Part shown: one piece after another, positions 20,267-48,341 of the stretch
Layout of the letters: every line of letters begins with the position of its first letter
Position numbering within the stretch: position 1 is the first letter of the stretch
Assembly: GCA_032718475.1 (NCBI GenBank)
Contig: JAUCBJ010008354.1
Span: 62,001 to 126,000, forward strand
Length of the DNA: 64,000 bases
Origin: Nemertoderma westbladi
Lineage: Eukaryota > Animalia > Xenacoelomorpha
Direction of reading: 5' to 3'
Translations under genes and position numbers: made by a program
The notes under the pieces: model-generated
Databases searched by the model: none
Seen by the model: only the letters and a program-made list of their open reading frames with translations
What the model was told of the DNA's origin: nothing

Positions 20267-20344
20267 CCGCTCCCAGAAAATGGGATTTTCAGTCTATAAA
20301 ATATAAAAATCACAGTTTCTAAAACCTAAAGATACTCTAAACAG

Positions 20345-23996: not shown

Positions 23997-24029
23997 CTGT
24001 TCGAAGCTATCTGGAACGACAGGTAGTGG

Positions 24030-26241: not shown

Positions 26242-29200
26242 TTAAGTTGGGGAGTCCCTAGATGTCGGTTGGATTAGGGAAGTGGTCGTGGGAAGAGTTT
26301 CTTGCCTTCCATAGTTTCCGGAGAGCTCTCTGTCTCTTTCCAGTAAACATAAACGACCCACTGGGCGGTTGAGCTGTTGAGTCTCAAAGACTATCCCTGG
26401 TTTCTTAAAGTTACGCCGCATGACGACGAGCTCTACTGATCGCACCAAACCATCGCTCGAGATATGAGTCTCGATGATACGTCCTGTTTGCCATCGCTTA
26501 CGTGGGAGATCGGGGTCCACAATAAGCACCATGTCTCCAGCGCTGACGTTTTCTTGCTGCGCAAACCACTTAGTTCGAAGTTGTAGAGTGGGCAGGTAAT
26601 GTTTCTCGAAATGGTCAGCGAAACGACGGGATAGCAACTGCATAAGTTGCCAGGTTCGACGGCAGTACTCGTCTCCGTCTGTGATCTCCGATCGTGGGAG
26701 CATGGCTACGGGTTTCTTCAGTAGAAAGTGCGCGGGTGTTAGCGCTTCCAGGGAATCAGGACTTGAAGAGACTGGCATAAGCGGTCTTTCGTTGAGATAG
26801 GCGGCGATTTCCTCCATTAACGTCCGCAATAGTTCGTCGGTGAGATAAGCGCGACAAGGTACAATAAAGTGGAACGCAGTCTTCACGCTCCTAATCAATC
26901 TCTCCCAACTTCCTCCCCACCAAGGGGCGTCGGCGGCATTGAAGGTCCAGCTAGACGCTGTTATCTTTAGCTGATCGTCCACCTGTCTTTTGTTCCAGTC
27001 CTTTACGTAAGCTTGAATTTCGTTGTTGGCGCCAATGAAGTTCGTTCCCTTATCCGATCTCATCGTGTTACTGGTTCCGAAGCGAGCGATCTGTCGTCGT
27101 AAACTCAACACGAAGCTGTTGGTGGATAGATCGTTTACCATATCGAGATGGATAGCTCTACAAGTCATACAAACGAAGATGACACACCATCTCTTGACTA
27201 TAGTCCGGGCACGATATACTTCAATAGGGCCAAATAAATCCACACCGGTATTAGTAAAGGGTGGTTCATAGAAGCTTACTCTTTCCCTAGGTAATTCTGC
27301 CTCTCGCTGTGTCAAAGGCCTACTGAATGCTTTCCTACAGGGTATGCAGTTCCTAAGGACTTGGTTCAGAGCCCTACGGGGTTTATAAAAATAGTAGCGA
27401 GTTCGAATTTCGCTCAGAACTCGTTCTCTTCCAGCATGATACAGTTTGCTATGAACATCTACAATCATCTTGATTTGTATGTCAAGATTTCTAATGAGTA
27501 TGGGAAACTTAGTGTCAAAGGATAATGGGGCGTTGGTAAGCCTGCCTCCAACACGTATTAACCCATCTATCATGGTACTAGAGAAGCGATCCCTTAAGCG
27601 CATCTGCGGATTTCTTAACAACAGGAAATACTTATCGGGATCCTCATAGCATTGTAGGAGTCTCAGCATCTGTTTGTTGGTTTCATCATGCTCCTGGTAA
27701 CTGATCTTCTCCTTTAGAAACCTGTCGGATATCTTGTATTTGGGAAGATCTTTAACAACATGGACTCGTGCAGATGTTGATGGAGCATCATCACTATTGG
27801 TCTTTGTCCCGGAGTAACGATGATGAAAACATCGTTTTAAATAGGTGACGGCTTTACAGAGCCGATTCCAGGAACTGTAATGACGTATCACTCTCTGCAG
27901 GAGAGGTGAGAGTCCTTGCGAAATATCTGGTATTCCAGATTTCCAATCCTTGTCACGGATTTCTAAGACTTCTTTATCCGTGGCGGTGGGTTTCTGATCC
28001 AAAGCATCCTCTCCGGAAGTAAATAATACAGATAGATCAACCGCAGGTTTAAACAACTTCGATTTACTCGCTCGAGTTTTGGGTTTAACTTTCTCCGCTC
28101 CCTTGGCCTGTCTGATCTCTGCTGTTGTGAGATGGGGAGGCCATTCTTCTTCTTCTCTGTAGAGAAAGTCGGGTCCACCTAACCATTCGGGAGTATTTAC
28201 CAATTCCTTTGGAGTCGCTCCTCGGGAAGCGATGTCTGCTGGATTAATCGTTCCGGGGCAATGTCTCCATTGATCCATCGTCGTGCGACTAAGTATGATG
28301 GCTACTCTGTTGGTAACGAAGACGCTGAACTGACAGACTTCATTGGTTATATACTCTAACACGAGTAAAGCGTCGGTCCAATAGACAGTTTTCTCTAATG
28401 GATAGTCAATCTGTTCTGTTACATTCCGGCCGATGGCTGTAGCGTATAGAGCCGCTTTTAACTCCGCTCGAGGAACTTTCAACTTGTTGTTGATTAATGC
28501 CTTAGAAGTAACCAAGGCGACTTTGATTCCATCCGGAGTTTCCACTCTTAGATAGGCTACTATACCTATTCCCATATCGCTGGCGTCTCCAAACACATGG
28601 AGTTGATAGGAATACGTAGGGAGAACATGACCAAAATATGAACGGGAAATTATAAAATCCTCGATAGCCGGCAGAGAATCTTCCCATTTCATCCACTTCT
28701 TTAATAATTCTCCCTTAAGTGGATCGTCCCATGAGTGGTTTTCAAGCCACATTTGTTGTACCAAACTACGAGCAATCAATATAACTGGGCTAATAAATCC
28801 CAATGGATCGAAATAAGTGCTCAGTATACTTAAGCAAATCCGTTTGGTTCGAACTGGATTATCTCGCTGTTTTAGCTGGAAAAACAGGATATCTCGCTCT
28901 GTGTCCCATTTTAAGCCGAGTGTCTTGGTTTCTGGCAGATCATCTTTGATCAAATCTAGATCTTTCGCCCCTCGATCTTCCGCAGGGATCGACTCCAGAA
29001 ACTCACGGGAGTTGCTGGTGAATTTCGTTAATCGAAACCCACCTCTTTTTAAGCACTCTACCGTTCCTTTAGCGACCTCAATGGCTTCCTCAACTGATGG
29101 GAGGGACTTCAGATTATCGTCCATATATATGTCTCGCTTGATGTTGTCGATCACTTCCTTAGAGAATGCCTCTCGGTTGTCCTCTGCAGTGGTACGCACT

Positions 29201-32200
29201 ACCGAACAGGCGTTGGAAGGGCTTGAGATTATCCCAAAGGCCTGGATGGTCATCCAGTACTCCACCGGTTTCTGGTTGAGGTCTCCTTCGGGCCACCACA
29301 GAAATCGTAGACTATCTCGATCCCTATCTAACACCTTGACTTGTAAGAACATGCCTTCTATATCGGAGGCGAAAGCAATCGAATATTGTCTCAATCTTAA
29401 AAGAATTCCCAACAAAGATTGAAGTAAGTTGGGTCCGGGTAACAATTCAGAGTTAAGGGATTGACCCATGTAAAGAGCGGAGCCATCAAACACTACTCTC
29501 ACTTCATGTGGTTTACCGGGTTTAGGAACGTAATGGTGAGTTAAGTAATACGTTCTTTCAGTCACAGGTGTTTCTTCCGGTACTCTCTCCGCGTATCCCT
29601 TACTAATAAATTTCTCCAGCTGTGTTTGATACATTTCTTTAGCTGAAGAATTAGCCGTAAGGCGTCGATGGAGTTGCGCGATTCTTTTTTCCGCCAAGGG
29701 TCTGTTATTGATGAACTTCGGTTCTCTCTTGCGGAAAGGTAGACCGACTTCATACCTACCTTGATCTTTGAGGAAACGCGTAGTTGTTTCTTGGATCTGC
29801 TTGGCCCTTTCCTCTTCCACCGATAAGGCTTTATCGTAGGAATTGGGCTCTACCGCCTCTTGCGTAAAGAATCGTACGGCATGTTCATCTCGAGTCTTGG
29901 CATTACAACGCTCAATGACGTCATTTAACTCGTCGTTATAAGCTTCTCGTTCAGATGGATAAAGAAGTTGACATAAGTTCACTTGGTTTTGCCAAGCCTC
30001 GTTTTCCTTAAGGAGATCGATGGTATTCTCCTCATCAAAAAGCTGGTGAACGTCGTCGTTATCTGAGGAGTATGGAGTTCCCTCAGTTAAATCGTCTCCC
30101 TCACTAGTATCATCTTCCCATTCACTCACCTGGCAGACGCGCTCTTGCGGTAGTCTTTCTCTGAGTGTTCTACGGGAAGGGCCAGTAAAGTACCAACCTA
30201 CTCTAGTTCTTACCGCATAGGTCTGTAGTGGCTGCGGTTGAGCAGGCCGTTTCTCTAATGTCTCCAGCGCCTCATGCGCGTTTTGGCCGATGAGTATTTG
30301 CACTCCAGGATAATCAGTCTGGAATCGAGGTATGTTAAGATGTTGGATGCTCTCATCCTCGTCCCAATTATAAAGGTCTGCTTGAGTAGTAGCGAAGTTC
30401 TTTATAGCCACCATTTTCACTGACCTTATGCTATGTTCTCCTAGTTCGTCCTGGGGGGTGGACAACGCGCCTACATAATAATCCGCTGTTACTGTAGATT
30501 TCCAAACTTGCATAATGCCGGACATGTTTAGCTTAGTTCGGAACTTGGGTTGTCCAGCAAATATGTCTTCGGCTAGCTCTTTGTCGATGAATGTTCCTGT
30601 ACTACCGGAGTCAAGGAGGGCGTTCACTACATAACTCCGTTTAGGTCCGTGAACCCTTACCTGCACCACAGGAAACTCTCGGATCCCTACATTGGAAGAT
30701 GGCTCTTTCCAAGATGGTTGTCGATCAGAAGTAGTTAGAGTGAGGTCGCTGTCTGTATCTTTTTCATATGTGAGTGCTCGATACACTGCGGTATTTATCA
30801 TGTAACAGGATTCGTTTTCGTCGGAGAACTCGTCCGTATAGAATCCTTCCATCTCAGATTGATCAGTGTCGTTCACATCACTGAATTGGACATGTAGTTC
30901 GGAATCACTTACCTGATTCGGACTATTTCGCTCGAATTCAGCGTGCAACAAGATATGATGTTTCGCACCACACTTTGCACACCTTATGTCAGAGTAACAG
31001 GTTCGCCGTTGGTGTCCTTGTCTGAGGCAATTATAACATAACCGCTTATCCCACATGACTTCTCGTCTCTCCGTTAATGATTTCTTCAGGAATTCATCAC
31101 ACATATTCAAACGGTGGGTCCCGTCACATAGCGCACATTTCGGTTTGATGTTACTTACCTTATTTTGGGTAACATTGTGCACTCTCGTTCTTTCTTCGGG
31201 CTTTCTCACCTGAATTCTCTTGGGAGACGTAGGAGGAGTTTTTCTTACCTGTCCTCTCTTGTCATTGGATCGAGACTTAAATTTACTTCCCTGTTCGTTA
31301 GGTGTTTTATTGACATAATAAGATCTTTCAGTGTCTTTCCCGCTATCCTCCCCTTGGGAAGCTTGGCTTTCGCCGTCGTCGGTATAACACACTGGTGTTA
31401 CCTTTCTTCTGGAGACGGGTTTCTCACTTACCTTGTTTTCCGATGTCTTCTCTCTGGACTGCTTTATGAGCTGTAATTTCACTTCGCCATCCAAGAATGT
31501 CATGAGATCAGTCATGGTAGGGTCTCGTTGCTGTTGTTCCATCATGTATAACACTTTCTTGTCCCAGCGTGTACCTACTCCACCCTTCGGTAAAGTAGAA
31601 GCCACTGCTCTAATAACCATATCACTCTGATACTCATGAGACTTACCTAGCCAATCTAATTGTCTGCAGATCTCCTGAATTTCATCGGAAAACTCTATAA
31701 TCCCGTTGCTAATAAACTTTCGGGGCGCTACCAACTTTGCATACAAATACCCAGCTATGTTATTCCTATTACCATACCTGATGTTTAGTGTATCCCAAAC
31801 TTGTCTTAATCCGTCTGGATGTCCAATAAACTTTAACGCCATTAACTTGGGAGATCCTTCCAAGCACTCTATGAGGAATCTAAGTTTCTCTCCATTAGAT
31901 AGTACAGAGTTCTGTATGTTATCTTTGTAATATTCATTAAAAGGTAACCATTTCATCTCATCTCCATTGAACTTGACGATCTCTCCCACCTTTACCGCTT
32001 GCCGGGCTTCGGTTCTAGCCATTTGACACGTAAAACTTTCTTGGGCCATCGTGTTATTTAATATCGAATTATCGGTATATAAATTTCTCGGATTATGATC
32101 AGGTCTATAGGGAATGTCATTATCAACAGGTCTATAATTACCCTTAATAGGGTTCACTATAGGAGTTTCTACTTCGCTAGCAGTGTATATGCGTGTAGGC

Positions 32201-32622
32201 TCCACACCTTGCGCACGAGATACTTCAGGCCTAACAGGTTGACACATTGTTACCGAGGGTGGTGGTATACCCTTTTGTGTATTTACTAATTTATCGCGTT
32301 CGAGCGCGATACTTTGCTGCACTTCTTGCAACTCTAGTCTACTTTCCCTTACTGTGCCCTTGAATTGCTGAACAGTCTCCTGCATCTGCCCGAGCAGGAG
32401 ATCCATCCCCCGCTGTCTCTCGTCCACCCATTCGACCGCAGAAGCGGGAGTCGCCAACGTTGTAGCGGGCGGACGAGGGACAACGGGCGACAAATCATGA
32501 ATATTTCGCTCGGGGTCCAGGACCTGAACTGTCTCCTGGGCAGTTCTACTGGGCACAGGTAGCTTAGTGCTGTGCAGAGGGAATTTAGAGGTAGCTTCAG
32601 GGAGCACAGGTGTGTCTATCAC
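26242..32622 (-). CDS. gag-pol: A2 gag-pol polyprotein (gag core, protease, RT, RNase H, integrase); original start lies upstream of the LINE insertion
   Basis: Uninterrupted 2126 aa: KFNGDEMKWLPF gag core, 3 CCHC, LDSGS, YMDD, FGDAS, DDE integrase. Confidence 0.96.
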   Translation of the reverse strand: MIDTPVLPEATSKFPLHSTKLPVPSRTAQETVQVLDPERNIHDLSPVVPRPPATTLATPASAVEWVDERQRGMDLLLGQMQETVQQFKGTVRESRLELQEVQQSIALERDKLVNTQKGIPPPSVTMCQPVRPEVSRAQGVEPTRIYTASEVETPIVNPIKGNYRPVDNDIPYRPDHNPRNLYTDNSILNNTMAQESFTCQMARTEARQAVKVGEIVKFNGDEMKWLPFNEYYKDNIQNSVLSNGEKLRFLIECLEGSPKLMALKFIGHPDGLRQVWDTLNIRYGNRNNIAGYLYAKLVAPRKFISNGIIEFSDEIQEICRQLDWLGKSHEYQSDMVIRAVASTLPKGGVGTRWDKKVLYMMEQQQRDPTMTDLMTFLDGEVKLQLIKQSREKTSENKVSEKPVSRRKVTPVCYTDDGESQASQGEDSGKDTERSYYVNKTPNEQGSKFKSRSNDKRGQVRKTPPTSPKRIQVRKPEERTRVHNVTQNKVSNIKPKCALCDGTHRLNMCDEFLKKSLTERREVMWDKRLCYNCLRQGHQRRTCYSDIRCAKCGAKHHILLHAEFERNSPNQVSDSELHVQFSDVNDTDQSEMEGFYTDEFSDENESCYMINTAVYRALTYEKDTDSDLTLTTSDRQPSWKEPSSNVGIREFPVVQVRVHGPKRSYVVNALLDSGSTGTFIDKELAEDIFAGQPKFRTKLNMSGIMQVWKSTVTADYYVGALSTPQDELGEHSIRSVKMVAIKNFATTQADLYNWDEDESIQHLNIPRFQTDYPGVQILIGQNAHEALETLEKRPAQPQPLQTYAVRTRVGWYFTGPSRRTLRERLPQERVCQVSEWEDDTSEGDDLTEGTPYSSDNDDVHQLFDEENTIDLLKENEAWQNQVNLCQLLYPSEREAYNDELNDVIERCNAKTRDEHAVRFFTQEAVEPNSYDKALSVEEERAKQIQETTTRFLKDQGRYEVGLPFRKREPKFINNRPLAEKRIAQLHRRLTANSSAKEMYQTQLEKFISKGYAERVPEETPVTERTYYLTHHYVPKPGKPHEVRVVFDGSALYMGQSLNSELLPGPNLLQSLLGILLRLRQYSIAFASDIEGMFLQVKVLDRDRDSLRFLWWPEGDLNQKPVEYWMTIQAFGIISSPSNACSVVRTTAEDNREAFSKEVIDNIKRDIYMDDNLKSLPSVEEAIEVAKGTVECLKRGGFRLTKFTSNSREFLESIPAEDRGAKDLDLIKDDLPETKTLGLKWDTERDILFFQLKQRDNPVRTKRICLSILSTYFDPLGFISPVILIARSLVQQMWLENHSWDDPLKGELLKKWMKWEDSLPAIEDFIISRSYFGHVLPTYSYQLHVFGDASDMGIGIVAYLRVETPDGIKVALVTSKALINNKLKVPRAELKAALYATAIGRNVTEQIDYPLEKTVYWTDALLVLEYITNEVCQFSVFVTNRVAIILSRTTMDQWRHCPGTINPADIASRGATPKELVNTPEWLGGPDFLYREEEEWPPHLTTAEIRQAKGAEKVKPKTRASKSKLFKPAVDLSVLFTSGEDALDQKPTATDKEVLEIRDKDWKSGIPDISQGLSPLLQRVIRHYSSWNRLCKAVTYLKRCFHHRYSGTKTNSDDAPSTSARVHVVKDLPKYKISDRFLKEKISYQEHDETNKQMLRLLQCYEDPDKYFLLLRNPQMRLRDRFSSTMIDGLIRVGGRLTNAPLSFDTKFPILIRNLDIQIKMIVDVHSKLYHAGRERVLSEIRTRYYFYKPRRALNQVLRNCIPCRKAFSRPLTQREAELPRERVSFYEPPFTNTGVDLFGPIEVYRARTIVKRWCVIFVCMTCRAIHLDMVNDLSTNSFVLSLRRQIARFGTSNTMRSDKGTNFIGANNEIQAYVKDWNKRQVDDQLKITASSWTFNAADAPWWGGSWERLIRSVKTAFHFIVPCRAYLTDELLRTLMEEIAAYLNERPLMPVSSSPDSLEALTPAHFLLKKPVAMLPRSEITDGDEYCRRTWQLMQLLSRRFADHFEKHYLPTLQLRTKWFAQQENVSAGDMVLIVDPDLPRKRWQTGRIIETHISSDGLVRSVELVVMRRNFKKPGIVFETQQLNRPVGRLCLLERDRELSGNYGRQETLPTTTSLIQPTSRDSPT

Positions 32623-32631
32623 CGAAGGGGT

Positions 32632-33119
32632 TATAGATAGATAGATTTATTTATATATTATGCAAACAATAGAAACCAATACATTAACTCAGTAAAATTA
32701 TTAATGTATAGTAAGTATTGTCCAACATAACATAAAGGATAACCCCTAAAGCTTTGCAGCTTATTTCCAAGGGGGTCCTTCAAGTTACTTGGTTACCAAT
32801 ACAAACTAAACTAACTACTGTATATAGAATAATTATATAATTTAAACTAAATAAGATACAAGAAATACAAAATTGAACATTATTACTAATTATTGCACAT
32901 GCACCTATTTAATATTGAACTAAACTAAATACTGCTATATAAGAATTTGCACTGGTCTTGGAGATGGGATTTTACTGCAGACTTAAAGGCATGTTCATTT
33001 TTAATATTTTTAATGTTATTCGGTAAGGAATTCCAATTCTTTATTCCATTAAAGAAAAACGTTTCGCTTTCAAAGGATATACAATTGGGAACATAAAAAT
33101 TTGATGTGCTGGCTCTGGT
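32632..33119 (-). mobile_element. 5'-truncated non-LTR retrotransposon (CR1/L2-like 3' end) inserted in A2 gag
   Basis: 15-bp TSD TATCACCGAAGGGGT (32617-32631 and 33120-33134); encodes ...WNSLPNNIKNIKNEHAFKSAVKSHL; short (ATCT)n tail. Confidence 0.88.
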
Positions 33120-34865
33120 TATCACCGAAGGGGTGATTTCAAGAACAGGCCTAATTATTTCAGGCTCATCTACTATAGTAGGGAGTCTTTCTATTTTAAT
33201 TATTTGGTCTGTGGGTTCTGTACTACCTAAGTTGGTGCTATTTAGTTGCCTTCTAACAGCTGGAGGCAAATCAGGCAATTTCTGACGGTAGAATGTTCTT
33301 TTACGTCTGCTTAGACGAGATCTATTTCCTTTGCCTTCAGTATCGGTGGTATCGCCTTCCTCAGATGATGTATATCCCTGTCTTTTGGGAGTAGATCGAT
33401 TCATCATCTGCATATTACTAGCTGTTAACTGTTTATTTATGCAGTCTTGATTCTCCTGAATGTTTTCCAATTCTAATTGGGTGATTTCTTCCGCCGCTCT
33501 ACGTTCTGCTTCTGCCACTGCCATTTCCGCTTTTCTTTTCATTTCGGCTGCTTTTCTTTTCGCTTCTGCCTCTGCCGCTGTCGCTGCCGCTTTTCTTTCC
33601 ATTTCGGCTGCTTTTCTTTCCATTTCGGCTGCTTTACTTTCCTCTTCGGCTGCTTTCCTTTCCGCTTCGGCAGCTGCTACTGCTGCTTTCTTTCTGTCTT
33701 CTATACGTTTTTTCTTTACTTGCTCTTCTTGGACTCGTGTGATGCGGAGTTGTTCATCAAATTTAGCCTGGTTCGCAGCCCTCATTTCCACATCGATGGC
33801 ATCCAACACACGCTGAGTTCCTTCACTATTAGGGCTAAGTCCATCTAACCTTCTCCTCAACTCGTCATCACCTAAAAAACGTTGATAGTCTGACAGATAG
33901 ATGTCAATGGCATCCCTCTTATGCGGCTTCTCTGCCGTCGCTTCACTTTCCACTTGGGAAAAAGTAGCGTCTGTTGATTCTCCATGGGTTGAGCGCTCCT
34001 CCAGCTGAGCTTTCCACTGAGCTGTTCCTTGAACCTGGAGACTCACCCGTTGAAACCAAGTCTTTACGGCAACTTGCAACGACGTGTCTTGTCTTCGTTT
34101 AGAAGCCTCCTCAAAGGCCGATAATATTAGCCTGATTCGTAGAATTCTTTCTCTAACTTGATAAAGCAGTTGTCCCTGCTCTTGAGGTCCTTGTGGTTGT
34201 TGAAACAGTTGTCCTTTTACTCGCTCCATAGAGCTGAAGAATCCCTGTGCGTATCCGGCTGCGGACCTCTTCCACACAGCTGGATCTATGGTTTCCTTGG
34301 CTACTCCCATCCGGTGTATGTCTTCCCAGGCAGCTTCTGATAAATCAAACGGGAGTCCGGGTCCGGGGAAGTTCCATTGCGACTCGACAATAGACTTCAG
34401 TTCTTCCCTCGTGTATCCCGCATAACTATCTTTAGTTGATCGCTGACTTCTCGCCCAATCGATCTGGTGTTCTTCCACCGCAATCAATAACCTAGTGAGT
34501 ACGGCTGCAGGAAGGATGAGAAGGGGATCCGAATAAACCGCATCCATCATCTTTGCTCCGCGTTCGGGTGTCAGCTCTACAGTATCCTCACTACTGGAGC
34601 TGTTGGGCCGTTGAGAAATAAGTTCTTGGCTCGCGGGTTGTTGCTGTTCTGCTGCTTCTTGGTCCCGCTTGACCTGAGCTCGAGTGCCTATGATAGACCT
34701 ACGATGTTGGACCAGCCTAGGGTCTGATATTACTACAGGAGGGATGACCTTCCTCACAGTAGGAGGTGAACTGAACTTAGGTCTAGACGGTTCTACACCT
34801 CTATCTGAGTCACAGATAGTTACATCTAATAAACTGTCTGACAGGTTCTGCTTAGTATCAGACAT
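33120..34865 (-). CDS. gag: A2 gag N-terminal extension (coiled coil, AAEMERK repeats); ORF track 32925-34865 runs on into the LINE
   Basis: Removing the insert and one TSD restores ...EITPSVIDTPVLP... in frame, giving a polyprotein of about 2700 aa. Confidence 0.85.
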
Positions 34866-36185
34866 GTTTATGTGTACAGTTGAATGCCTACTGCTATATT
34901 ACAGTCTAAGCAAGTCTAGTAATTCAGTATTAACTGCTAGCCTAGTAATTAATTACCGATACTGCTACTCAGTGTAGTGTGATATATATAATATATTAGA
35001 ATACCGGTATGCTTATAGTTATATAACTATATAAGTATTATTACAGACTAGGTTTATCACAGAATACCGGTATAATTTTAGCACAAATATATATAAATAT
35101 ATAATAGGCCTATCGGGAATACCGGTATACAGCTTACAGTTTGTAGTATATATAATTCTGGACTAGAATTAATTACAAGTACCGGTATAATTTCAGCCTA
35201 AATTTATAGAAATAAAGATAATAGGCCTATCGTAAATACCGGTATATCAATTATTTTAAATAATTGAATTTCTGAATTTTAGGGTTACTTGGTTACTTTA
35301 CTTACTTTATTACCGTTATTTGAGCAGTAATCCAACTGATATTGAGACCTAATGGTTGTATGGTAGGCCTGCTATTTATAAATCGTTAGATTTGATTTAT
35401 AATATATATATACCCGTTTTAATGGGTTTTGTCAATGTTTGAAATAAATGTTATTATTTCTGGGGAGTAATCACTACACAAAGCGGTGCGCTTTCAGTGA
35501 AGTGTTACTTATAGGACACTAAAACAAATAATGCTAATTTACCTAAGTTACTTAATACTACAAATTACGTACAATTCGGGTGAGATTACAATCTCTAAAT
35601 AAACACAAAAATTTACAAAAAACACAAAATACGAATTTTCAGGGTAATTTTACAAGAAGTCTACAAACCAGCCTAACAAAGGGTTAGAATTCTGGTTATT
35701 ACAACGGACAGGGTACTGCGGTATTTGAAAATAATACGTAGTAGTAAATACACTGCGTTGTCCAGATAGGAAAATACCACCGCCTGACGACCTATAGCCG
35801 TATCGCTATAGGTACTACGTTATGTATCACGGAGTGTTCCTACCTAGAAGTTAATAGAGCTAATCGAACGTGCCTATCAACCACTTTACAACACAAATAT
35901 AATGCCTACACTAATTACTTTCGGAAAGCACTGTACACTAAACCCTAAATTAGGTACGAGTACTTGTACAACATATAATCAGTAGTTAAATATACTTGAA
36001 CAGCTAAAAGAACCACGGCATCTGCTGGAGTGACCGGTGCACAAAATCACCAGTCTTTACCTACGCCAAGCAGCCCGTGTAGTACCGGGGTTAATTTAAC
36101 TATAGCGGTATGTATAACAAACACAATTATTGTAGGAACAAACTTGGGGAATGAATGTTGCGAATAATCGCATAAACTCTGAATA

Positions 36186-36760
36186 ATAAATATTACGCTA
36201 CGCGTACAAACCACTCAAACAAAATGCAGACCAAATACTGACAGACTACTATCAAGCCTAAATAAACTACAGGACATGCAGACTCCGAAATGGTTAGGTA
36301 GTATGCGTTCTAACCCAGTAGTACGACTTATTCTTTAGATGGGGGTTTACCTTACAGCTTTGGCTGCCCCTACTTCCTAACCGTTCTTTATCGGACAGAG
36401 GCTCTACACACACTGCAATCCGTTCAGACCTAATAACAGCCAGACAACTATCCAGCCTACAAATTATCTAAATAAATATTATACGCTACCTGTACAGACT
36501 ACACAAACAAAGTACAGACTAAACGATGGCAGACTACTCTCAAGCCTAAATAAACTACAGGACATGCAGACTCCGAAATGGTTAGGTAGTATGCGTTCTA
36601 ACCCAGTAGTACGACTTATTCTTTAGATGGGGGTTTACCTTACAGCTTTGGCTGCCCCTACTTCCTAACCGTTCTTTATCGGACAGGTGATCTACACACA
36701 CTGCAATCCGTTCAGACTTAACAACAATCAGACAACAGCCCAGCCTACAAATTGTCTGTA
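36186..36760. repeat. Tandem duplication of about 290 bp in the A2 5' leader
   Basis: CAAGCCTAAATAAACTACAGGACATGCAGACTCCG...CTGCAATCCGTTCAGAC occurs twice. Confidence 0.9.
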
Positions 36761-36929
36761 CAATATGATCAGGCTTACACGCCTTCTGTTCAATACTGGC
36801 CTACAAATAAATAAAACTGACAGAAATAAGTAAGCTCCAAAAGAAACAAGGGGTGTACAGTCCCTAATCTCTTAAACAGCCTACCGGTATGCAATAATCA
36901 AAATCGAATAATACTAATGTACTTATACT

Positions 36930-37055
36930 AGAAGTACCGGTTAGGACAGTTGGACCTACAGACCTACTGAAGTACCGATTCTGGCAGTTGGACCTACGGG
37001 CCTACAGCAGTACCGGTTCTGGCAGTTGGGCCTACTGACCTACAGATGTACCGTT
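36930..37055. repeat. Three to four tandem units of about 37 bp near the A2 PBS
   Basis: AGTACCGGTT..G.CAGTTGGACCTAC.G.CCTAC repeated. Confidence 0.75.
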
Positions 37056-37111
37056 CAGGTTTACCGGTTGACCGGTACTTTCAACTTTATTGCTTACTGC
37101 AATAAAGAAGC

Positions 37112-37123
37112 TATATCCGTTAT
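37112..37123 (-). promoter_or_regulatory. Non-canonical primer-binding site ATAACGGATATA, complementary to the element's own LTR
   Basis: Directly abuts the 5' LTR end; has no TGG; exact reverse complement at 37872-37883 and 19793-19804. Confidence 0.65.
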
Positions 37124-38330
37124 TGTTCGCGCTTTCAGACCTTTGGCAGTTTAACCCGCCAAATTAGGATGTCTTCTAGATAATAAATCACTTTTAGCCT
37201 CTGACAAGTATTTGATTCACTACACTAGTCGAAACCAATCTGTGCGCGATCATTCACCCGCTGGATATACCCGGGAGATTGGGTTCGACGGCTTAATCTT
37301 ATTGCTATGTAAGCCTAATGTATTATTCGACTGACAGTATTATATAATCTCTGACAATATTATTCACCTTCGGGGAATATTAACAGTTCCTTTAGGACGT
37401 GGCGCTCTATCTATAAAAACAGAGTTATGACTTAAACTACTCACAACGATATGGCTTAGTTACAATTCACATATATGGCGCATTCTTTAGGAAATGCTTC
37501 GTTATCAGTCTCGCTCATACACAACGCTGCACAATGCTGCACACTAATCTGCCGATCTTCACTGATTTTAGTCACATATAAAAGGAACACAGACCGACTC
37601 ATGTAGGGTCTATCAAATAACATTAGATTCACTTCAAACCACTTTAACATAAGTCACAATCGTTATATGTAACCTGTCTCTCTTACCTTCTGTATATCAA
37701 GAATATTGGGTTTTCGGGGTTATTTATCGTTATTCCAAATATAATAATTCATCAACCATATTATGAAGAACCGACAGTAAATAGCAGTATAACAATATAA
37801 AAGTATGCACAGGTATATTAGATTAGGTATGTTGCGTTGATTGAGTATGGGCCAGTTAACCAGTGTGTGTGATAACGGATATATGTCCTTATAATTAAGC
37901 CTACTAGTGTTAGGCTAAAACAGAAAAGCACAAAATATTCCAAAGCCGCTCTCTCCTGGCTCAGGACAGAATGTAAACACTGCCCATAATGCATTGCGTG
38001 ATTTCTAGGAAATTTCTGTACAAGAGCCATAAAAATGCTCTGATTGGCTGACTGAACTGAGAGACGCCGTAGAACAAAGAAAATCGACACGTATGAATAT
38101 CAGCTGTTAACCGTCGTCATAGTAACTACTGTTCAAGAGTAGCTATCACCTTTTGCGTCACGGAATTGCCATAGAATCATCAACTATGCCTTCCACAGTA
38201 CACATACGGAGGAAATAGCTCTTAGATCCTCTAAAAAACACCGATACAGCAATAATACGGTCTCTTACACCTATTAAATCAACTACAGAGTATTTTAATG
38301 TAAAAAATAATAAAAATAACGGGGCAATTC
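37124..38330 (-). repeat. 5' LTR of A2 (outermost 16 bp missing)
   Basis: Identity with 19041-20250 stops at GGCAATTC, followed directly by B1 RT sequence. Confidence 0.95.
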
Positions 38331-40720
38331 GCGCGCCCTGTGTCCAGTAGCTCCTCAACCGTATTTCCAGACTCCATCCCGTCGTCTACGTAGAAGCTGC
38401 GTCGAATCATATCGACGGCTCTAGTGCTGTACTTATCTTCCTTTCCCTTTATTGTGTCTCTTACGGCCATAGTCGTCTTGAAAGAAGACGACTTGGCTCC
38501 CATATTCTGTACTATCATCTTGTACATCGGTATTGTCGACGGTTCCACATCGCCATCGTACCATAGGAAGCGTTGACTGTCGCTATCCTCTTCCGTCACA
38601 CGGACTTGGTTGAACATGCCTTCTATGTCACAGGTGAAGGCGTGTTTTCCATTCCTGAACCTGAGTAGGACCTCTATCCCTGAGTTGTATATGTTGGGAC
38701 CTTCTAGCAGATAGTCGTTTAGGCATTTCCCGTCGGTCTTTGCCGATGCATCCACTACCATCCGCAGTTTACCTTTCTTCGGATCTAAAGCCACGTGGAG
38801 TGGTAGGTAATATGTCCTGTCCGCGTTTGGTTCGTCGATTGGTAACTCCACGGCCCATCCCTTCTCGACGTACTTTCTAATTGTTTTATGAATGTACTCA
38901 TTCTTTTCGGGGCTCCGTTTTAACGTCTGCTCCAACTTACGAAGCCTCGTGAGTACCATCGCTTTATTATCGGGCAGTGGTAGCTTTGGTACCTTCCATA
39001 CCATTCCTATGGTATACCGCCCCTCATTGCATCTCATAGACTCCTCTACGCTCTGCTGAGCCTGTTTGTCTTCCACCGAGGTTCCGACCCCGGTTTCCTT
39101 TAGTCCCTCAAAATCTTGCCTGAGCAGTATTTTGAGCTGTTCCTCCGCTCTCTCATCCCCTATTTCTTGCATAGTTCCTGCGAACATGCATCCCGATGTC
39201 TCCGACATCCTAAATGGTATCTTACTCTTAATTGGGCCACTCAGCGTCCACCCGAACGGCATCAATATCGCCACCGGATCACACTGCTTGTCTTCGCCGA
39301 AGACCATTTGCATTCTTTCGTGGGCCGTCGGGCAGTCCATTCCTACTATGATGGATACCTTCCTGACATCCACCTCTGGGATTGAGAAGTCGATATCGCC
39401 CAGGAATTTATATTGTTCGACCTCGATGTTGGTTGGCCGCCTGGCATTGATATTTATTGACTCTATCACTTGGATGGGGTCGATGGTCGCCCCGTAGTCG
39501 CATCCCGGTGCCACCGCTGCAATCGTGCACCGTCCGGTCCTCATCTCCAGGACCTCATCTTTGCTAGAGATTGTTGTTACCGCCATTCTACTTGGCCTCG
39601 TTCTCAATCCTATCTCTTCAGCCACCCAATTTTCGATTAGCGTGAAGGCAGCTCCACTATCGACCAGCATCAATGTGGTCACTGATCGATTGCCTTCCCC
39701 AATCACTCGCACTGGTACTACCCCAAGTAGCACCGTTCCTCTCTTCTTCGCCCCTACTATGCTCGTTGCTATCGTTTGGCCTTTGCTTTGACCAAACTTG
39801 ATCGGTGTCTCCTTGCATTGTCTAGCTCTATGTCCACCCATTACACATCGCGAGCAGATCTCATTCCTCGCCGCGTATTCTACCTGATCTTCCCTGGGTA
39901 GCGCTTGCCAGTAGCTGCAGTTCATGGTTCGATGAAACGCATTTGTATGTAGCTGGCATTTGCTCTTTGGGTCGTAGCCGTCCTTGTACAGTGCATCGCG
40001 TATCGCAGCTGTATTTGTACCAAAGTCCCTACTGTTTTTATTGTTTGGGTTCGGCCTACTGGGCGTACTGGGGTTATATTTATTTGTGTTGTTATCTTTC
40101 CCCTGTCCGCTCCATGATGTGGTCTTACCCCCGGCTACCTGTGGACTTGCAGTCCCCTGCGTCGCTGCATACGGCAATGATTGCCTGAGCTTTGGTAATG
40201 CGTTTGACGTGTTGTGTTCTGGTTTCGGTCTATGGTAGTTGGTTCTTGGTCCCTTTCCCAGGCTGTCCTCACTATAGACTGGGTCGGTTATTAATTCGGC
40301 TTCATAGTTCAAGAAGCTCGACATTTCTTCTAAACCCGGTTCCGCACCCTTCCTATCTCGAGTGGAGAAAGCGATCTTCCTCCACTTGTTGCGCAGCCAC
40401 ATCGGTAGTGCCTGCGCTATCGTGGTGATGTTGTTGGACGCGTTGAGTTCGTATGGTGCGTCTAGCGTCTTTAGCACGATTAGCGCCTTCTCGACTTTGT
40501 TAGCGAATGTCTTTATGCTAACGGGATTATCCTGTAGGCCACCCGATGTTATGCCCCTCAGGGTTTGCCGGATGATCTTGGCCGGGTGCCCGTATTCCCT
40601 ATCCAATGCCCGCCATGCCGTCGTGAAACCGCCCTCTATACCCTGGTATTGCCTCACGATGTTGTATGCTGGGCCTCCTGTATATACTTGCAGATATTTT
40701 AGGCACTCCGCCTGCGTCAA
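38331..40720 (-). pseudogene. gag-pol: B1 gag core, protease and RT (truncated just after YVDD)
   Basis: CQLH..H..C, CSRCVMGGHRARQC, LVDSGA, RMVVDAS, DIEGMFNQV, FYVDD. Confidence 0.9.
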
Positions 40721-40735
40721 GTTCTTTGTTAGTAT

Positions 40736-41131
40736 TTAGTTACTATACATGCGCCGAAACTGCAGATATTCTTCCGGCCTACTCCCATCGAATTTAAACG
40801 GTTCCACGGGTGGTAACTCGATCCTAGTTTTTAACGCATCGATCAACGTGGCCATCCCCATTGCCTGCGCTTCCAATGGGTTCGATGGATGTTGTATAGT
40901 TTCTCCTGTTGGGTGTGGTCCGTCCGTCCTATTTTCTACCTTCCTTTGGCTTGGGTATATCATTGGGGGTAGTGGCCCCCTCCATATTTCTGTGTCGCAT
41001 GATCTGTTTTCATCCAAGGGTCTCGTTGTTCTTGCTCCTATCGGGGTATATTGTTGATATTGTGATGGGGGAATGTCACCCTGTCCCCCCCCCCCCCCCC
41101 CCCACCGGTATGCTTGGTACTGGGGTTGATG
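40736..41131 (-). pseudogene. gag: B1 gag segment downstream of the P-type insertion
   Basis: IELPPVEPFKFDGSRPEEY is a typical start of the Pao gag core; a single stop separates it from the next segment. Confidence 0.75.
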
Positions 41132-44100
41132 CATGGCCTACTTTATAAGAGGCCATGACAACGCACGGGCAAATAGCTGACTTGGAGGCCACTTTGTTTA
41201 TGGGTGTAAGTCGGAATATATGGTAGATACAAACTTCTAACCTTTACCTACCCCCACTAAGTCGATGCTGAGGATCTCAAATATCATATTTAAAATTGTT
41301 TATCTCGAGACCCTGTTGCTATGGCAACATCTAACTTCTAAACGGCTGCAGATACAAACTTCTAACCTTTACCTACCCCCACTAAGTCGATGCTGAGGAT
41401 CTCAAATATCATATTTAAAATTGTTTATCTCGAGGCCCTGTTGCTATGGCAACATCTAATCAGTGGATACCGGTTGAACTTCCATTAAAAAAATGAAAAT
41501 AATACTTAAATCAAATATATAAGTTGCGTATAAGTTACAGTAAAAGTAAATCAAATAAGTAGAAAAATAAGAACTATAGTGACAACTTTAGTTTCTTAGT
41601 AGAAGATTCCTTCGAAGACAATGGTGTAAGGAGTTTCGTTTGATTGTTTAAAAAAATATTAGTTAGCTTCATTAGACACACTTGTGGAATCTCACCATCA
41701 AAATATTGACTTGACACAAAGCTAAAGTAGCAGCAAAGACTTCTCCGGCAAACTGAAAGCACACTGATGTTAAGAAAAAAAATAAAACAAAAAAAGGTAA
41801 ACTGCACTAGTATATCTGATGGTGTAGTAAGGCGACCTCGGTCTAGCTCTTTCAAATAGGTGCTGTACTCTGTATAGACAACTGTAGAAGGGTCTATGTT
41901 AGTATTCTCCGGTAAAGATCGCTGAAGATAACCGGCAATAAAGTACAACGCTTGTTTAGTGTCAACATTTATCTCATCTTCACACATAGGTAGTGTCTCG
42001 ACGAGATCTACAATAAATTCAGTCAATGTGACATTACATTTAGAGCATTTATGTGAGTCGTAATCGCTCTGCGTTGTTGACTGCTCATGTCGGAGAAACT
42101 CGAAATTAATTGAGGCTAACAGTTTTGTTTTTTGTATTTGGTAATACTGAAGGGCTTGCACTGCTGCAATGAAGTATGTTCCTCCCGCTGACTGGCGAAT
42201 CCGACCGAAAGCTTTTTCCAGTGGATCAGTGGTAAAATTACCACACAAAACATAATCGAAATTGCGTTGAAGTAACGATTTCACCAAATCTACAAAACCA
42301 CGAAACGTATGAACAATGGCGCTAGCTGTATCTGTTGTAAATGTCTGATAGCGAGTTTTACCATTTACACACCTCATTTTCTCAACATTAGAAGCTATAT
42401 CGAGCAGTATATCCAACCGTTTATCACCAGGATCTGATATGGGACTCCGCCATTCATCATTTAAATGTATAGCCTCGTTCTTGGACTTCACATTTAATAT
42501 CTTGAATGCCTTCACAAAAACTTCTATGAAATCTGCCGTGTCTTTGTCAGTTTTGTTTGATTTCGTATGAGTACATAAAGCTGTTACAGTTTCGTCACAA
42601 AATACTCGAAGCATTAAACAAACGTCTTGTCTCTCAATAGGTTTCGGGTATACAGCTTTGTGAATAAGTCGATGACCAATTTTAACAACATTGGACTTCT
42701 CAGACTCGTATAAACTTCTAATACTCGACCAATTGGCTATCTTGCCATCGAGGTTTATTGCCTGGTTCTTTTCAGTGATCCAATTATTGCGAATTGATTT
42801 CATCAAGTGAACAAAATCAAACAAAAGAAATGTTCCCTGAGTGGTTAACCAAGGCTTTCCTACCTCAGTTTCAAATAAAGCAAAAAAGCTTCGATTGACA
42901 GACAGATTGTCACCAAGAATTGCAATAACATTACCATTAGCTGATTGAATGTTTAGATAAACATCTGTTATAACATCATATAGAAAACTTGAATCTAAAT
43001 TTAACACTGGCATCATGTTGTTCAGAAATGTTGGACCACCATGAAGGCATTTTAACATAACACCCAAAATAGTTTTGGCCAAATAGTTGGGATTGTTTTC
43101 AGCTATTCCAAATATGTGACCACCTTGGTAGGCCAATGCCGCCTTTACGTAAATTTCATCAACCAAGAGCACACAGTTCCGTTGCATCACTGATAGGTTT
43201 TTAAAAACTGCGTGTAAAAAGTTATGATCATCTAATTTATTTGCAGTCGAAGTTAGTCGTTGCAATGTACGGATTGATGGAAGAGGATACTCATTTAAAA
43301 TCTTTGAATACAGCGAACGACTAGTTGCATAATATTCAAAAGCACGAACCAAAACATCGGCAGTCCATTTCTGACAACCAACACGAACAGGTTGAAGTGA
43401 CTTAATATCCTGAAGTAAAATATCGAGTTTGGAAGGGGTTTCCGCATTTGAAAGAAAATTAACCACATTATCTAATATTGACCAGCGATCAATCACTTTT
43501 ATACGCATGGAGTTTATAACGCAAAAGGGAACCGATATTTTAGCACCATATCTGTAAGACTCAAAAGTTAGATTCTTAAAGATCTTAAGAACAAACTTCG
43601 GAATTCCTGAACCAAACACAAATTCAGCACTTTGAATTATCGTCACCGGAACAGAAGAACCTGAAGATACTATTGCAGTAGCGGTGTAAACAATAACATT
43701 ATCCTTGATAATTTTTTTATCTCTTATCGCACCAACAACGTCTTTGTATTCGAACAAATCTTGTGCATTAAACTCGCCGAGCTGATCAGGTTGTATTTGG
43801 CGTGTACCAAAAGAAATTTTAGATACATCGCGCAGTTTTGGCTGAGATATGGGACAGCAACTTGGAGAAATCTGAGGCCATATCGAGGGGGGTTCGACAG
43901 GAATTAATTTCTGTGAGCGAAAAGCCCTACGTTGGGAAAACCCCTCCGGCCAATGCAGTTCACACACAACTGTGTGCTTGGAGACAATTAAATTTTGGCG
44001 AACTTTCAATAGAACGCTCATCCATTGAGAATGGTACGGCTCGTCACTAGGAACTCGATAAACGGTTACCGGTGATTCATTTGCATAGTTGGAGCGACAA

Positions 44101-45390
44101 AGTGGAACGCAGCACTTTCTAGGCATCGCATGCAATGCAACTAGAAAACCGCATGTAAATACTGAATGCAGGTAAGTAAGGACTCCGAGGCGATGATTAC
44201 TGCTTCAACTGTTCAATCTGTCGGTCACGGTCAGATCTCAGACGGTAATTACCGAATTAATAGACCACATCAACTGTCAAACATAATAAAACGAGGTACC
44301 GGTATCACAAACAACAATAGGCCCTATGTATTAATTAATATTACAGCAGTACAGACTACAGTCTTAAATTCAGACAGTAGGTGCAACTATTTATTACACT
44401 ATTAGTGTATTAGTTCAGTAGTCTATTAGTATCATTAGCATCATCAATCTGTCAATGCATGCAGAATGCAGGCACGCGATTCAGCGAATGCAGAATGCCA
44501 CCCCATCCCACAGTCCCATTATACTACTAACATAAAAGCATAAGGCAAACCATACTGCCATAACCCGATAACCACCTGACTGCCTCTGTGACCACCAGCT
44601 GACCAGAGCCAGAGCTGCAGAGACCACCCACTGACGCTGACCCAGCCACCTGCAGACCTGGCTGCCTGGACCACTGCTGCACCGTACGTGTACAGTTATC
44701 AGCAGCAACGTAGGCTGTCAGGTAGTTGAGTTACCGGTCAGCCGGTACCAGACCATCTGACTGCTAACTTACATCAGCTAACTTGCATCAGTCAGCTTGT
44801 CAGAAGTGACAAGACAACTGGACTGGACTGGAACTCATCAGCTGACAATGCAAGTTGACTTGTTCAGTTGTTTTGAGTGTACAAATGAAATTAAAAGGCA
44901 AATTAAAGATGAAAAATCACAAACCTAAAAACCTAGTTTTAGGCTTTTTTCAAATTTTAGGTTTTTGACAAAAACCTACAAAAACCTAGGTTTACAAAAA
45001 CCTACTTTGCCAGCCCTGCACGGACACCGATAAAGGATAAGTACTATATGCTATACATTTGGAAGAAAACAGAATACAGAAGTACACATGACGTAGGCCG
45101 CCCCACTAGAAACTAGGCATATACAGATATAGGCTACATGCTATACAGACAGACAAATACCGGTCAACCGGTATCCACTGATTAGGCCTAGATGTTGCCA
45201 TAGCAACAGGGTCTCGAGATAAACAATTTTAAATATGATATTTGAGATCCTCAGCATCGACTTAGTGGGGGTAGGTAAAGGTTATAAGTTTGTATCTACC
45301 ATATATTCCGACTTACACCCATAAACAAAGTGGCCTCCAAGTCAGCTATTTGCCCGTGCGTTGTCATGGCCTCTTATAAAGTAGGCCATG
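41132..45390 (-). mobile_element. P-superfamily (THAP9-like) DNA transposon, 4259 bp, apparently complete
   Basis: 8-bp TSD GGTTGATG (41124-41131 and 45391-45398); TIRs of at least 200 bp starting CATGGCCTACTTTATAAGAGGCCATG; single transposase ORF. Confidence 0.95.
41574..44135 (-). CDS. THAP-domain P-element-like transposase (853 aa)
   Basis: THAP motif MPRKCCVPLC..P..W..VCELHW; LPSIRTL; catalytic LVDEIY, GDN, FDFVHLMKSIRNN, TDPLEKAFGRIRQ. Confidence 0.93.
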   Translation of the reverse strand: MHAMPRKCCVPLCRSNYANESPVTVYRVPSDEPYHSQWMSVLLKVRQNLIVSKHTVVCELHWPEGFSQRRAFRSQKLIPVEPPSIWPQISPSCCPISQPKLRDVSKISFGTRQIQPDQLGEFNAQDLFEYKDVVGAIRDKKIIKDNVIVYTATAIVSSGSSVPVTIIQSAEFVFGSGIPKFVLKIFKNLTFESYRYGAKISVPFCVINSMRIKVIDRWSILDNVVNFLSNAETPSKLDILLQDIKSLQPVRVGCQKWTADVLVRAFEYYATSRSLYSKILNEYPLPSIRTLQRLTSTANKLDDHNFLHAVFKNLSVMQRNCVLLVDEIYVKAALAYQGGHIFGIAENNPNYLAKTILGVMLKCLHGGPTFLNNMMPVLNLDSSFLYDVITDVYLNIQSANGNVIAILGDNLSVNRSFFALFETEVGKPWLTTQGTFLLFDFVHLMKSIRNNWITEKNQAINLDGKIANWSSIRSLYESEKSNVVKIGHRLIHKAVYPKPIERQDVCLMLRVFCDETVTALCTHTKSNKTDKDTADFIEVFVKAFKILNVKSKNEAIHLNDEWRSPISDPGDKRLDILLDIASNVEKMRCVNGKTRYQTFTTDTASAIVHTFRGFVDLVKSLLQRNFDYVLCGNFTTDPLEKAFGRIRQSAGGTYFIAAVQALQYYQIQKTKLLASINFEFLRHEQSTTQSDYDSHKCSKCNVTLTEFIVDLVETLPMCEDEINVDTKQALYFIAGYLQRSLPENTNIDPSTVVYTEYSTYLKELDRGRLTTPSDILVQFTFFCFIFFLNISVLSVCRRSLCCYFSFVSSQYFDGEIPQVCLMKLTNIFLNNQTKLLTPLSSKESSTKKLKLSL

Positions 45391-45601
45391 GGTTGATGTT
45401 AATATATTGGGGCCCATGCACCTATCCGCAATAATTCCCCCCTCCCCTGGGTATATGTTATGTCCTTGCATGGTGTAGTCATACTGCTGTGCTGGTACCG
45501 GTATAGGCCTATCGGCTCCTGGCCTACCCGACGGTATGTACTCCGCGACTTCCGGGTTTAATCCCGTCGTCCGCGCTATCCTATCGCCTACATTATTCCT
45601 G

Positions 45602-46777
45602 TCAGCATGGCCTATGGTATGTGCACTGTGCAGTAAGGCCTACAGTATGTCCTACAGTCTGTATGTGTCGCTTGGGATCGAAGTTTAATCTTCTCAAGTA
45701 ATCCTCCCCGCGGCTACCGTATTCTCGATCGGTAGTTATATCCTGCTGGGAAGTTTCTCTTCGACCCCCTCCACTATTCTCGTTCTCATGTCGGTACATC
45801 GCGTACCCCTCTATCGGCGCGTAGTGCGCCTCGTCAGGTCGCGCCTCTCCGGGACGACGGCAATCTCCCGAAGTTCGACCCCACCGACTTTCCGTTCCCA
45901 TCTCGACTATCGATGGCTCGCTATCCGTCCTCGCTCTCCTATCGCCCGCGGCGATACTTCTTCTACTTTCTTCTCTTCTTCTCTCCCCAGTGCAGTATTC
46001 CCGCTCGTGAGATCTCTCTTCCATCTCCCGGTTAAACTCCACTGTTCTTCTTCCCTCTTCTGATCGGGCTCGATTCTTCGTCTGCCCTCTCGCGACGTCA
46101 ACCTGCCTCTCTCTGCTCGATCGCACGCCGCTGGGGATACTCGCAATCCCCCTATTACTCTCCGTCGCTGGATGTTGCGGTTTACCTGCCTCGGCCCGCG
46201 CATTATCCGTTGACGCCTGTTGGGCACTCTCTGCCCCCCCTTCCCCCGCTAACTCGCTGTTGTGGGACTCTTGTAGCCCCCCCCCCCCCCACTCGCCACG
46301 TTTCACTTCACTATCTCTCACTTCACCTCTACACCCCTTTCTAGTCGACGCACTGTCTTTACTGCGGCTGGGTTCGTTCACCCCCGCCTCTCTCTCTACT
46401 ATTGCGTGGCCTACCAGGCCCACCTCGGGTTGGTTCAACCCCGCTACCTCCTGCCTACCAACTACGTGGCCTACCAGGCCCCCGTCGGGTTGGCTTAACC
46501 CCGCCGCTTCCTGCCTACCAACTACGTGGCCTACCAGGCCCCTGTTTGCCGGGTTGTGTATGTCCGACGCGTTCACATTAATAGCATCACTGTGGTTGTC
46601 GCCAATTTGGCCCTCTAGTTCACCTAAATTATTTTGTGCACCAAAATTAGAAACAGAATTATTTTGTTCGTTCGAGATAAGATTATTTGAATTATTTTGC
46701 GTGGGTACATTATTTGAATTATTTTGCAAATTCGGGTTTGGATCATTATTTAAATTATTTGGATTAATTGCATTCAT
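45602..46777 (-). pseudogene. gag: B1 gag N-terminal low-complexity region
   Basis: Upstream of and on the same strand as the B1 gag core; Asn-rich start; about three 20-aa repeats GLVGHVVGRQE. Confidence 0.6.
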
Positions 46778-46784
46778 CTTTTAA

Positions 46785-48341
46785 CCCTATTAGTACCGGG
46801 CTATAAAATGTTGTACAAATACCGGGGGGGGGGGGGGGTCATATTGACCCCCCCCTCTAAAATCTACAAATATTTACGAAAACGTCTGATTTTTTGTTTG
46901 TACGTAGTTATCACTAGTCTGGATCCGACCGAAAAAAAAAATTTTCGAAAAAATGTACTGGGGTGGTTATATTGCAGCACCAAAATTACAAGTAGTGCAC
47001 AATTTTCACCAAATTTGAAAGTTACATTTTCGGCTAATTATTTTTCAATACAGGTTTTCTGGGGTGCAAAATACATTGGAAAATATTAAAAAATGATATG
47101 ATTACTATAAATGGCTGTTTAGTCCTCTCTGCGTAGGAAAAAAATGAAAAAAACAAGTAACCAGCACTTTTCAGTTAGAACACAAAATTTTTAATTCTAC
47201 TTATACGATGCTATAAATTCACATTTTCAGGTTTTCGAGGGCGCTGATTCTAATGGAATACATTTCTAATATGCCAGATCATTGCTACTTGTATTTTTCG
47301 GCGTAATTTGGCAAATTTTGGTGCTAGCACCAAATTTCGTACCCATCACCAAAAAGTACAAGTTTGCGATGTCCAGTGCTGTTTTTATTGATTCCATCGG
47401 ATTCAGGACCCTCATAAACCCGTATAACGCAAGAAACAAGGTGATACTATCTACTTATCAATTTGCATATTTTCCAAAATTTGGTGCTGGCACAACAATT
47501 TTCACCCACCGGCGAAAAATACAAGTTTGAGAACTCTTATGAAATTTTTACTGATTCCATTGAATTCAGAACCATCACACACCCGTATAACGCAAGAAAC
47601 AAGGTGACACAATCAATTGATATATTTGATGGTTTTCAAAATTTGGTGCTAGCACCACATTTTGCACCCACATCCGAAAAATACAAGTTTGAGATGTCTA
47701 GTTCGATAATTATATTTTCCATTGAATTCAGAACAGCCATAAACCTCTAAAACGCAAGAAATAAATTGTCACAAGCAATTTTATCTATTGAATGGATTTT
47801 CAAAATTTCGTGCTAGCACCAAAATTTGCACACAGCACCGAAAAATACAAGTTTGATACGCTTGGTGCCACTCGTATATATTTCATCGAATCCAGAAACC
47901 CAAAAAACCCCAATTGCGTAAAAAACAAGTTTCAAACGATCAATTTACAAAATTGACTTATTTCAAAATTTGGTGCTGGCACCAAAATTTGGCACCCACC
48001 GAAAAAAACAAGTTTGAAATTTCTAAATCAATTTATATGAATTCCATCAAATTTCTAACACCAAAAAACCGGTGTAAATCAAAAATAGAGATGTTACAAT
48101 TCATATTTAATGAAATGTAATTTTCAAAAAACGTCTCAAAAAAAGTGCCAAAAGTAGGGTTAAAAAATGGTGCTATAACTCGAAAAGTACCCAATATTTT
48201 TGAAAACGGTTTTCACTACTAGGAAGACAATAGATTTTTAGGAAAAGTCATAAAATTTCAGATTCCCAACTGCGTTTGTTTCAGAATTATAATAAAAAAA
48301 CCACGGGGGGGGTCATATTGACCCCCCCGGGTTTAATAGGG
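46785..48341. mobile_element. Non-autonomous piggyBac-like element
   Basis: TTAA|CCCTATTA...TAATAGGG|TTAA; subterminal palindrome GGGGGTCATATTGACCCCC at both ends; no transposase ORF. Confidence 0.85.
47310..48080. repeat. About 4.5 diverged units of 160-175 bp inside the piggyBac-like element
   Basis: AAATTTGGTGCTAGCACCA...AAAAATACAAGTTTGA...GAATTCAGAA...AACGCAAGAAA recurs. Confidence 0.85.

Follow-up and report, generated by a model that had tools for sequence, protein, structure and literature searches.

Candidate self-primers, contiguous or split by a predicted intron, in the LTRs of a Bel/Pao retrotransposon from Nemertoderma westbladi and its relatives

A Bel/Pao LTR retrotransposon of the xenacoelomorph Nemertoderma westbladi, here called element B, carries directly behind its 5' LTR a primer-binding site (PBS) that is the exact complement of 12 contiguous nucleotides within its own LTRs. 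Self-priming of some kind is, to judge from this match and its counterparts in related elements, a likely reading of the sequence, and there is a good chance that it would follow a Tf1-like route in which the primer comes from the 5' end of the element's own RNA. Tf1-type self-priming is itself already known; what would be new here is its occurrence in a Bel/Pao element.

The window analysed is a 64,000-nt stretch of the N. westbladi assembly GCA_032718475.1 (contig JAUCBJ010008354.1, positions 62,001 to 126,000 of the forward strand), and the features of element B given below are all on its minus strand. The gag-pol domain set, together with TG...CA LTRs and a polypurine tract, identifies element B as a Bel/Pao retrotransposon: a 2134-aa gag-pol open frame (26242-32646) contains DUF1759, Cys-His knuckles, Peptidase_A17 (PF05380), an integrase zinc finger and DUF5641, and the 1226-nt 3' LTR (19041-20266) adjoins the polypurine tract GGGAGCGG (20267-20274). 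The 5' LTR (37124-38330), in which the match begins at 38330, lacks its first 16 nt, ends in ...GCGAACA at 37124 and is 98.6% identical to its partner. These Pfam domains rule out assignment to the Tf1/sushi group, whose pol is that of Ty3/gypsy chromoviruses. The N-terminal part of the gag-pol region (32925-34898) is followed by an insertion of ∼0.49 kb (32632-33119), similar to a LINE 3' end and flanked by a 15-bp duplication, which breaks the gag region. A leader of ∼2.2 kb (34900-37080) with 288-bp and shorter tandem duplications separates the PBS from the first ATG, and pol is followed by an extra ORF region (20661-24605) of 191 aa plus 1122 aa, with an in-frame stop between them.

A further Bel/Pao element, unrelated to element B and here called element C (12534-17386 and 38279-46780, minus strand), surrounds element B, at whose ends no target-site duplication was found, the start of the 5' LTR being lost. 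Element C also contains a THAP-domain P-like DNA transposon (41132-45390; 202-bp inverted ends, 876-aa open frame), and neither its 5' LTR nor its PBS was found in the window, which also holds a relative (61697-64000) and, at 46780-48340, what is probably a non-autonomous DNA transposon, with internal repeats of 163 bp and short inverted ends. Pieces of the element B family are present in contigs of four runs, with thousands in two of them, which indicate many copies. The best relatives are ∼40-45% identical in RT-RNase H, the named ones being mainly of echinoderm and coral origin, while a mussel, a ribbon worm and a tunicate supply a few more; no relatives were found in viral contigs, and the 32-nt LTR-end pattern of element B had no match in metagenome or genome contigs.

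A tRNA-type PBS starting with TGG is usual in Bel/Pao elements, although not defining. The PBS of element B, ATAACGGATATA (37112-37123), begins at offset 0 from the end of the 5' LTR and lacks TGG, which is absent throughout the 40 nt that follow the LTR. Its reverse complement occurs at exactly two sites in the whole window, one in each LTR of element B: at 37872-37883 in the 5' LTR, where it is contiguous and intron-free, and as an identical 12-mer at 19793-19804 in the 3' LTR. An initial annotation of this DNA had already described the 12 nt without TGG as an exact complement of the LTR, and both the coordinates and the match hold. By standard LTR biology, every LTR site is carried by the genomic RNA at its 5' end, its 3' end or both, so that a refuting condition named in the initial annotation, an LTR 12-mer that is never transcribed, cannot hold. 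The paired 12-mer, ∼750 nt from the LTR end, has its 3' end oriented towards that end, as a primer requires. An intron-split primer is ruled out for element B, the best match across canonical splice sites being 4 bp versus 12 contiguous.

A chance match, or one peculiar to a single copy that has lost its true PBS through decay or deletion, might be entertained given that a single full junction is available, from a truncated and nested copy, and that many elements were screened. Dinucleotide shuffles of the LTR, however, reached at least 12 bp at offsets 0-4 in 11 of 20,000 trials (∼5e-4), the site is conserved amid divergent flanks in other copies, and the same arrangement repeats in relatives, so that coincidence appears highly improbable. 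When other window positions served as mock PBSs against the real LTR, 13 of 117,752 reached 12. It could also be proposed that a host RNA, either a tRNA half or another small RNA, is the primer and that the match in the LTR is an accessory feature or a coincidence; half-tRNA primers are indeed described for copia-type elements in PMC6317226. This seems decidedly unlikely in view of the missing TGG, the lack of any tRNA gene in the window or of any meaningful Rfam match inside element B, and the 13 different PBSs of the relatives, which track their own LTRs in a manner that a host RNA leaves unexplained. The same tRNA-gene and Rfam scans rule out a tRNA-like primer gene within element B.

Further copies of the family allow the surroundings of the primer site to be compared. 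The sister element A1, 97% identical to element B in RT-RNase H, is represented in the window by its 3' LTR only (11355-12533, plus strand), with no A-type 5' LTR, and the primer-site variant TATATCTGTTAC reported for it is present at the aligned positions 11789-11800. Identical columns between the two LTRs number 32 of 40 ahead of the primer site, 10 of 12 within it, 33 of 85 directly next to it on the other side and 567 of 669 farther downstream. The poorly matching columns correspond to a CA-rich segment (37792-37871) directly 3' of the primer site, which is hypervariable between copies and also contains 5 of the 17 differences between element B's own LTRs. A solo LTR of this family (54349-55359, plus strand), diverged and with some of its sequence deleted, keeps 9 of the 12 primer-site letters, and the family contigs retain the site amid divergent flanks, with joints or loose ends at 37871. 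One C-to-T variant of the primer site in these contigs would still pair via G-U, and no PBS variant is present among the 40 of 199 variant rows listed. The variable segment, from the predicted cut onward, might show where strong-stop DNA ends; slippage in CA-rich sequence accounts for it as well.

In the Tf1-like model, the RNA of element B would start at the 12-mer of the 5' LTR or upstream of it and fold back across ∼750 nt, so that the 12-mer pairs with the PBS and points with its 3' end towards the LTR end. A cut directly 3' of the 12-mer, for which the RT/RNase H of element B is the probable agent, as in Tf1, would free a 3'-OH able to prime minus strong-stop DNA. Predicted pairing of the 12-mer/PBS core is at least 0.97 in 8 of 12 trial RNA starts and 0.05-0.68 in the other four, these long-range predictions being unstable in that one start scored 0.14 in one calculation and 0.68 in another. 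Several observations speak against a 5'-end primer: the loop is far longer than those of the relatives, four of the 12 trial starts fold differently, the solo LTR keeps only nine letters, and the A1 variant, which ends in AC, would have a mismatch at its 3' terminus if placed on the PBS of element B. In addition, a TATA-like TATAA lies 10 nt upstream of the 12-mer, and if this is a true TATA box the 12-mer would belong to U3 and be missing from the 5' end of the RNA. R is not placeable in the element B LTR because AATAAA is absent from it.

Two local structures and two splice-like signals lie in the same region. The 9-bp hairpin after the PBS (37085-37107), pointed out in the initial annotation, folds at -8.5 kcal/mol, a stability equalled by 2 of 200 shuffled versions of the 44-nt sequence; as a feature of the lineage it is ruled out, relatives having no comparably stable hairpin there. 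Close to the 3' end of the LTR, a stem-loop of 8 bp (37142-37163; z -3.5 to -4.2) is retained in all three LTR types, those of element B, of A1 and of the solo copy, with changes on one side of the stem. A donor-like GTAAGA (37677-37682, minus strand), ∼200 nt past the primer site and with a GT that A1 and the solo LTR retain, could yield a subgenomic RNA for the extra ORF, and an acceptor-like tract terminates 31 nt upstream of the 12-mer.

The extra ORF region contains a DEDD-like exonuclease domain (∼21627-22649) followed by Cys-His knuckles. The in-frame stop dividing the region lies in the same place in element B (24030-24032) and A1 (7580-7582), suggesting readthrough or a two-ORF design over decay. 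Pfam gave no exonuclease match in this ORF of element B and word-index searches returned no homologues, while a HMMER search of 1.84 billion proteins found one, with weak matches to PF01612 and to zinc knuckles; P0121 matches PF01612 at E 0.2, and comparison of the extra ORF with the PDB reaches E 0.14-0.15 at best, to EXD2 and RNase D. An alignment with A1, element C and the HMMER homologue keeps DxE, a second D and YxxxE; of the catalytic set D-E-D-D plus Y, the DxE and second D align, and the YxxxE third motif was positioned by eye. Foldseek with a low-confidence model (pLDDT 38.5) gave DEDD/DnaQ-type exonuclease folds for 39 of the 40 matches listed (best E 0.002), and HHalign of the domain against seven bacterial PF01612 domains gave 86.8% and E 4e-6. 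The domain is probably real, and to this extent the 3'-5' exonuclease proposed in the initial annotation is borne out.

Its proposed task, trimming an LTR RNA back to the duplex, is not supported. If the 12-mer of the 3' LTR or of a separate LTR transcript were the primer, the DEDD-like exonuclease of element B would trim that RNA to the duplex; the evidence that the domain is real (Foldseek, HHalign, acidic motif residues kept), a TATAA at -10 from which transcription might begin only beyond the 12-mer, and the divergence of element B, which may differ from its relatives, all favour such a route. However, no exonuclease domain was detected in 86 related loci, and the gap between pol and the 3' LTR is below 400 nt in 23 of 24 relatives and 782 nt in the other (two of the 24 values being 0 where the search missed the polypurine tract), compared with ∼6 kb in element B. 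None of these 24 end-mapped relatives has room for an extra ORF of this size, and the self-match is thus independent of the domain. An extra ORF of the unrelated element C (14730-15887, 13283-14695) encodes a similar DEDD-like exonuclease together with Cys-His knuckles, DEDDy ORFs are described in rotifer gypsy-like and Penelope-like elements (PMC5408684), and trimming would presumably destroy the 3' R of the same molecule, needed for strand transfer. Priming from another RNA end therefore seems unlikely. As self-matching relatives do without an exonuclease, self-priming in the group needs none and a role in priming is doubtful; the exonuclease of element B is probably accessory.

The 86 loci were collected by pol alignment (78 metagenome and 8 genome-bin) and are 36-45% identical to element B in RT-RNase H. 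Direct repeats located the two LTR ends in 24 of them, 12 gave the LTR start only and the other 50 were uninformative. Just three of the 24 have TGG within the first 8 nt of the PBS region. Many relatives show instead a self-match of 6-10 nt that starts directly after a pyrimidine tract and AG, and in an unfiltered scan of every upstream GT in 11 LTRs a GTAAG donor alone extended the duplex best in eight, a GTGAGT donor tied for best in two, and one LTR missed. With canonical splice sites required, the PBS pairs over 10-15 bp with the own 3' LTR in 16 of the 24 relatives: in 14 across a predicted GT-AG intron of 67-451 nt within the LTR (L004, L007, L014, L021, L034, L035, L037, L045, L053, L058, L060, L063, L083 and L084) and contiguously in two (L026 and L080). 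Shuffled PBSs equalled the match in at most 6 of 1,000 trials for each of the 16, and in a cross-family control 10 bp was reached in 2 of 580 pairs and 11 bp in none. With the 5' LTR copies, L054 (split, 10) and L012 (contiguous, 10) join the list, relaxed splice filters are needed for L019 (11) and L031 (10), and L077 and L081 have a self-match with mismatches. The TGG-type L032 and L078, tRNA-primed in appearance, reach self-matches of just 5 and 4 bp. The 24 relatives are partly non-independent, with close groups L053/L054/L063, L083/L084 and L004/L007/L058/L077. Outside these counts, a semi-circular scan of the 12 loci with an LTR start only gave nine plausible cases and three unclear ones.

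The 14 split cases comprise 13 distinct primers, 11 of which end in AC facing a PBS that starts with GT. Where the exon-1 letters differ, as in CAC of L083 versus TAA of L084, the PBS letters follow (GTG versus TTA), and covariation of PBS and LTR was found across distant relatives; together with the geometry and the shuffle statistics of element B, it backs the self-priming originally inferred for that element. AATAAA or ATTAAA lies past the primer in 10 of the 14 split-primer LTRs, and AATAAA in no intron. The loop between primer and PBS is 44-216 nt in the relatives versus ∼750 nt in element B. A shared TATA box at -30 is ruled out, being present in 2 of 17 cases. Five loci (L080-L084), Bel/Pao elements of which several have both LTRs, come from bacterial genome bins (GTDB), most likely through contamination by animal host DNA.

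In a tree of RT-RNase H-integrase from 31 elements, 26 relatives form one clade (SH-aLRT 100), a TGG-type group of four is separate, and element B falls outside both on a long branch; the root of this tree was chosen by the analyst, and a tree with more taxa left element B unplaced too. Because element B lies outside the self-matching clade, the relatives serve as analogy and not as proof: element B shares the self-match trait with them, and common descent followed by intron loss is not implied by the tree. The 11-mer TTATAAGGACA, directly 5' of the 12-mer in element B (37884-37894, minus strand; also 19805-19815), is found at three places in 674 kb of relatives, all of them ahead of the primer's exon-1 half in L045 or L060. 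Close kinship of element B to L045 and L060 on account of this 11-mer is ruled out by the 31-element tree. In L045 and L060 the motif is unlikely to be a TATA box, since transcription beginning 25-30 nt beyond it would start within the intron, and this weakens, without removing, the TATAA objection to a 5'-end primer in element B.

On balance, we lean slightly towards a broader interpretation in which tRNA-free self-priming would be the rule in a wide marine Bel/Pao lineage. In most members the spliceosome would join two LTR exons into the primer, so that only RNA spliced in its 5' LTR would be copied, with the 3' LTR keeping the intron for inheritance, and element B would represent an intron-less form. 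If this is correct, Bel/Pao would be a third LTR superfamily with self-priming, abundant in animals, the mechanism having so far been shown for Tf1 and predicted in gypsy and copia lineages. Self-priming would account for many Bel/Pao elements without a recognisable PBS, which bears on annotation tools that need tRNA matches. Split primers would moreover couple the onset of reverse transcription to splicing by the host, a form of retroelement control that we have not found described, and the contiguous form in element B would offer a natural comparison for how the primer trait changes.

We found no report of self-priming in Bel/Pao elements, nor of an intron-split primer, in the literature covered, which excludes subscription papers. 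Cer7 of C. elegans, a Bel-type element, reportedly encodes its own tRNA-like primer, unlike element B, which has no tRNA-like gene and whose primer candidate is inside the LTR. Achilles is likewise a Bel/Pao element. The main text of four Bel/Pao surveys (PMC554778, PMC3118150, PMC11117352 and PMC6238403) is free of PBS terms, and their supplements could hold PBS data. Achilles, with a tRNA-Tyr PBS according to a passage of PMC4580426, resembles L032 and L078 in sharing the superfamily and domain set of element B and yet having a TGG PBS; L032 and L078 also differ from element B in having no LTR self-match. In the bdelloid rotifer elements Juno and Vesta, an ORF3 after pol encodes a DEDDy-type 3'-5' exonuclease of untested function (PMC5408684), similar to the extra ORF of element B, although these are not Bel/Pao elements and the relevant passages discuss neither a priming role nor the PBS type; element B differs from this ORF3 in its third motif, YxxxE, and the Cys-His knuckles that follow. 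Self-priming has been predicted from sequence alone for Tcn1 chromoviruses and the plant copia elements TAR, Houba and Osr-1 (PMC6317226), which, with element B, would place it in more than one superfamily; superfamilies and hosts differ, and Bel/Pao goes unmentioned in the sections concerned. The closest parallel is with Tf1 and Tf2 of S. pombe, Tj1 and the Tf1/sushi group, whose PBS is described, as in element B, to complement the element's own LTR RNA and not a tRNA: Tf1 uses an 11-nt self-primer released by an RNase H cut between bases 11 and 12 (PMC7175516), and the same geometry has been proposed for Tj1 (PMC4600332). Element B differs from them in being Bel/Pao and not Ty3/gypsy, in its ∼750-nt loop and in a candidate primer known from sequence alone, and its relatives differ in that their primer is mostly split by a predicted intron.
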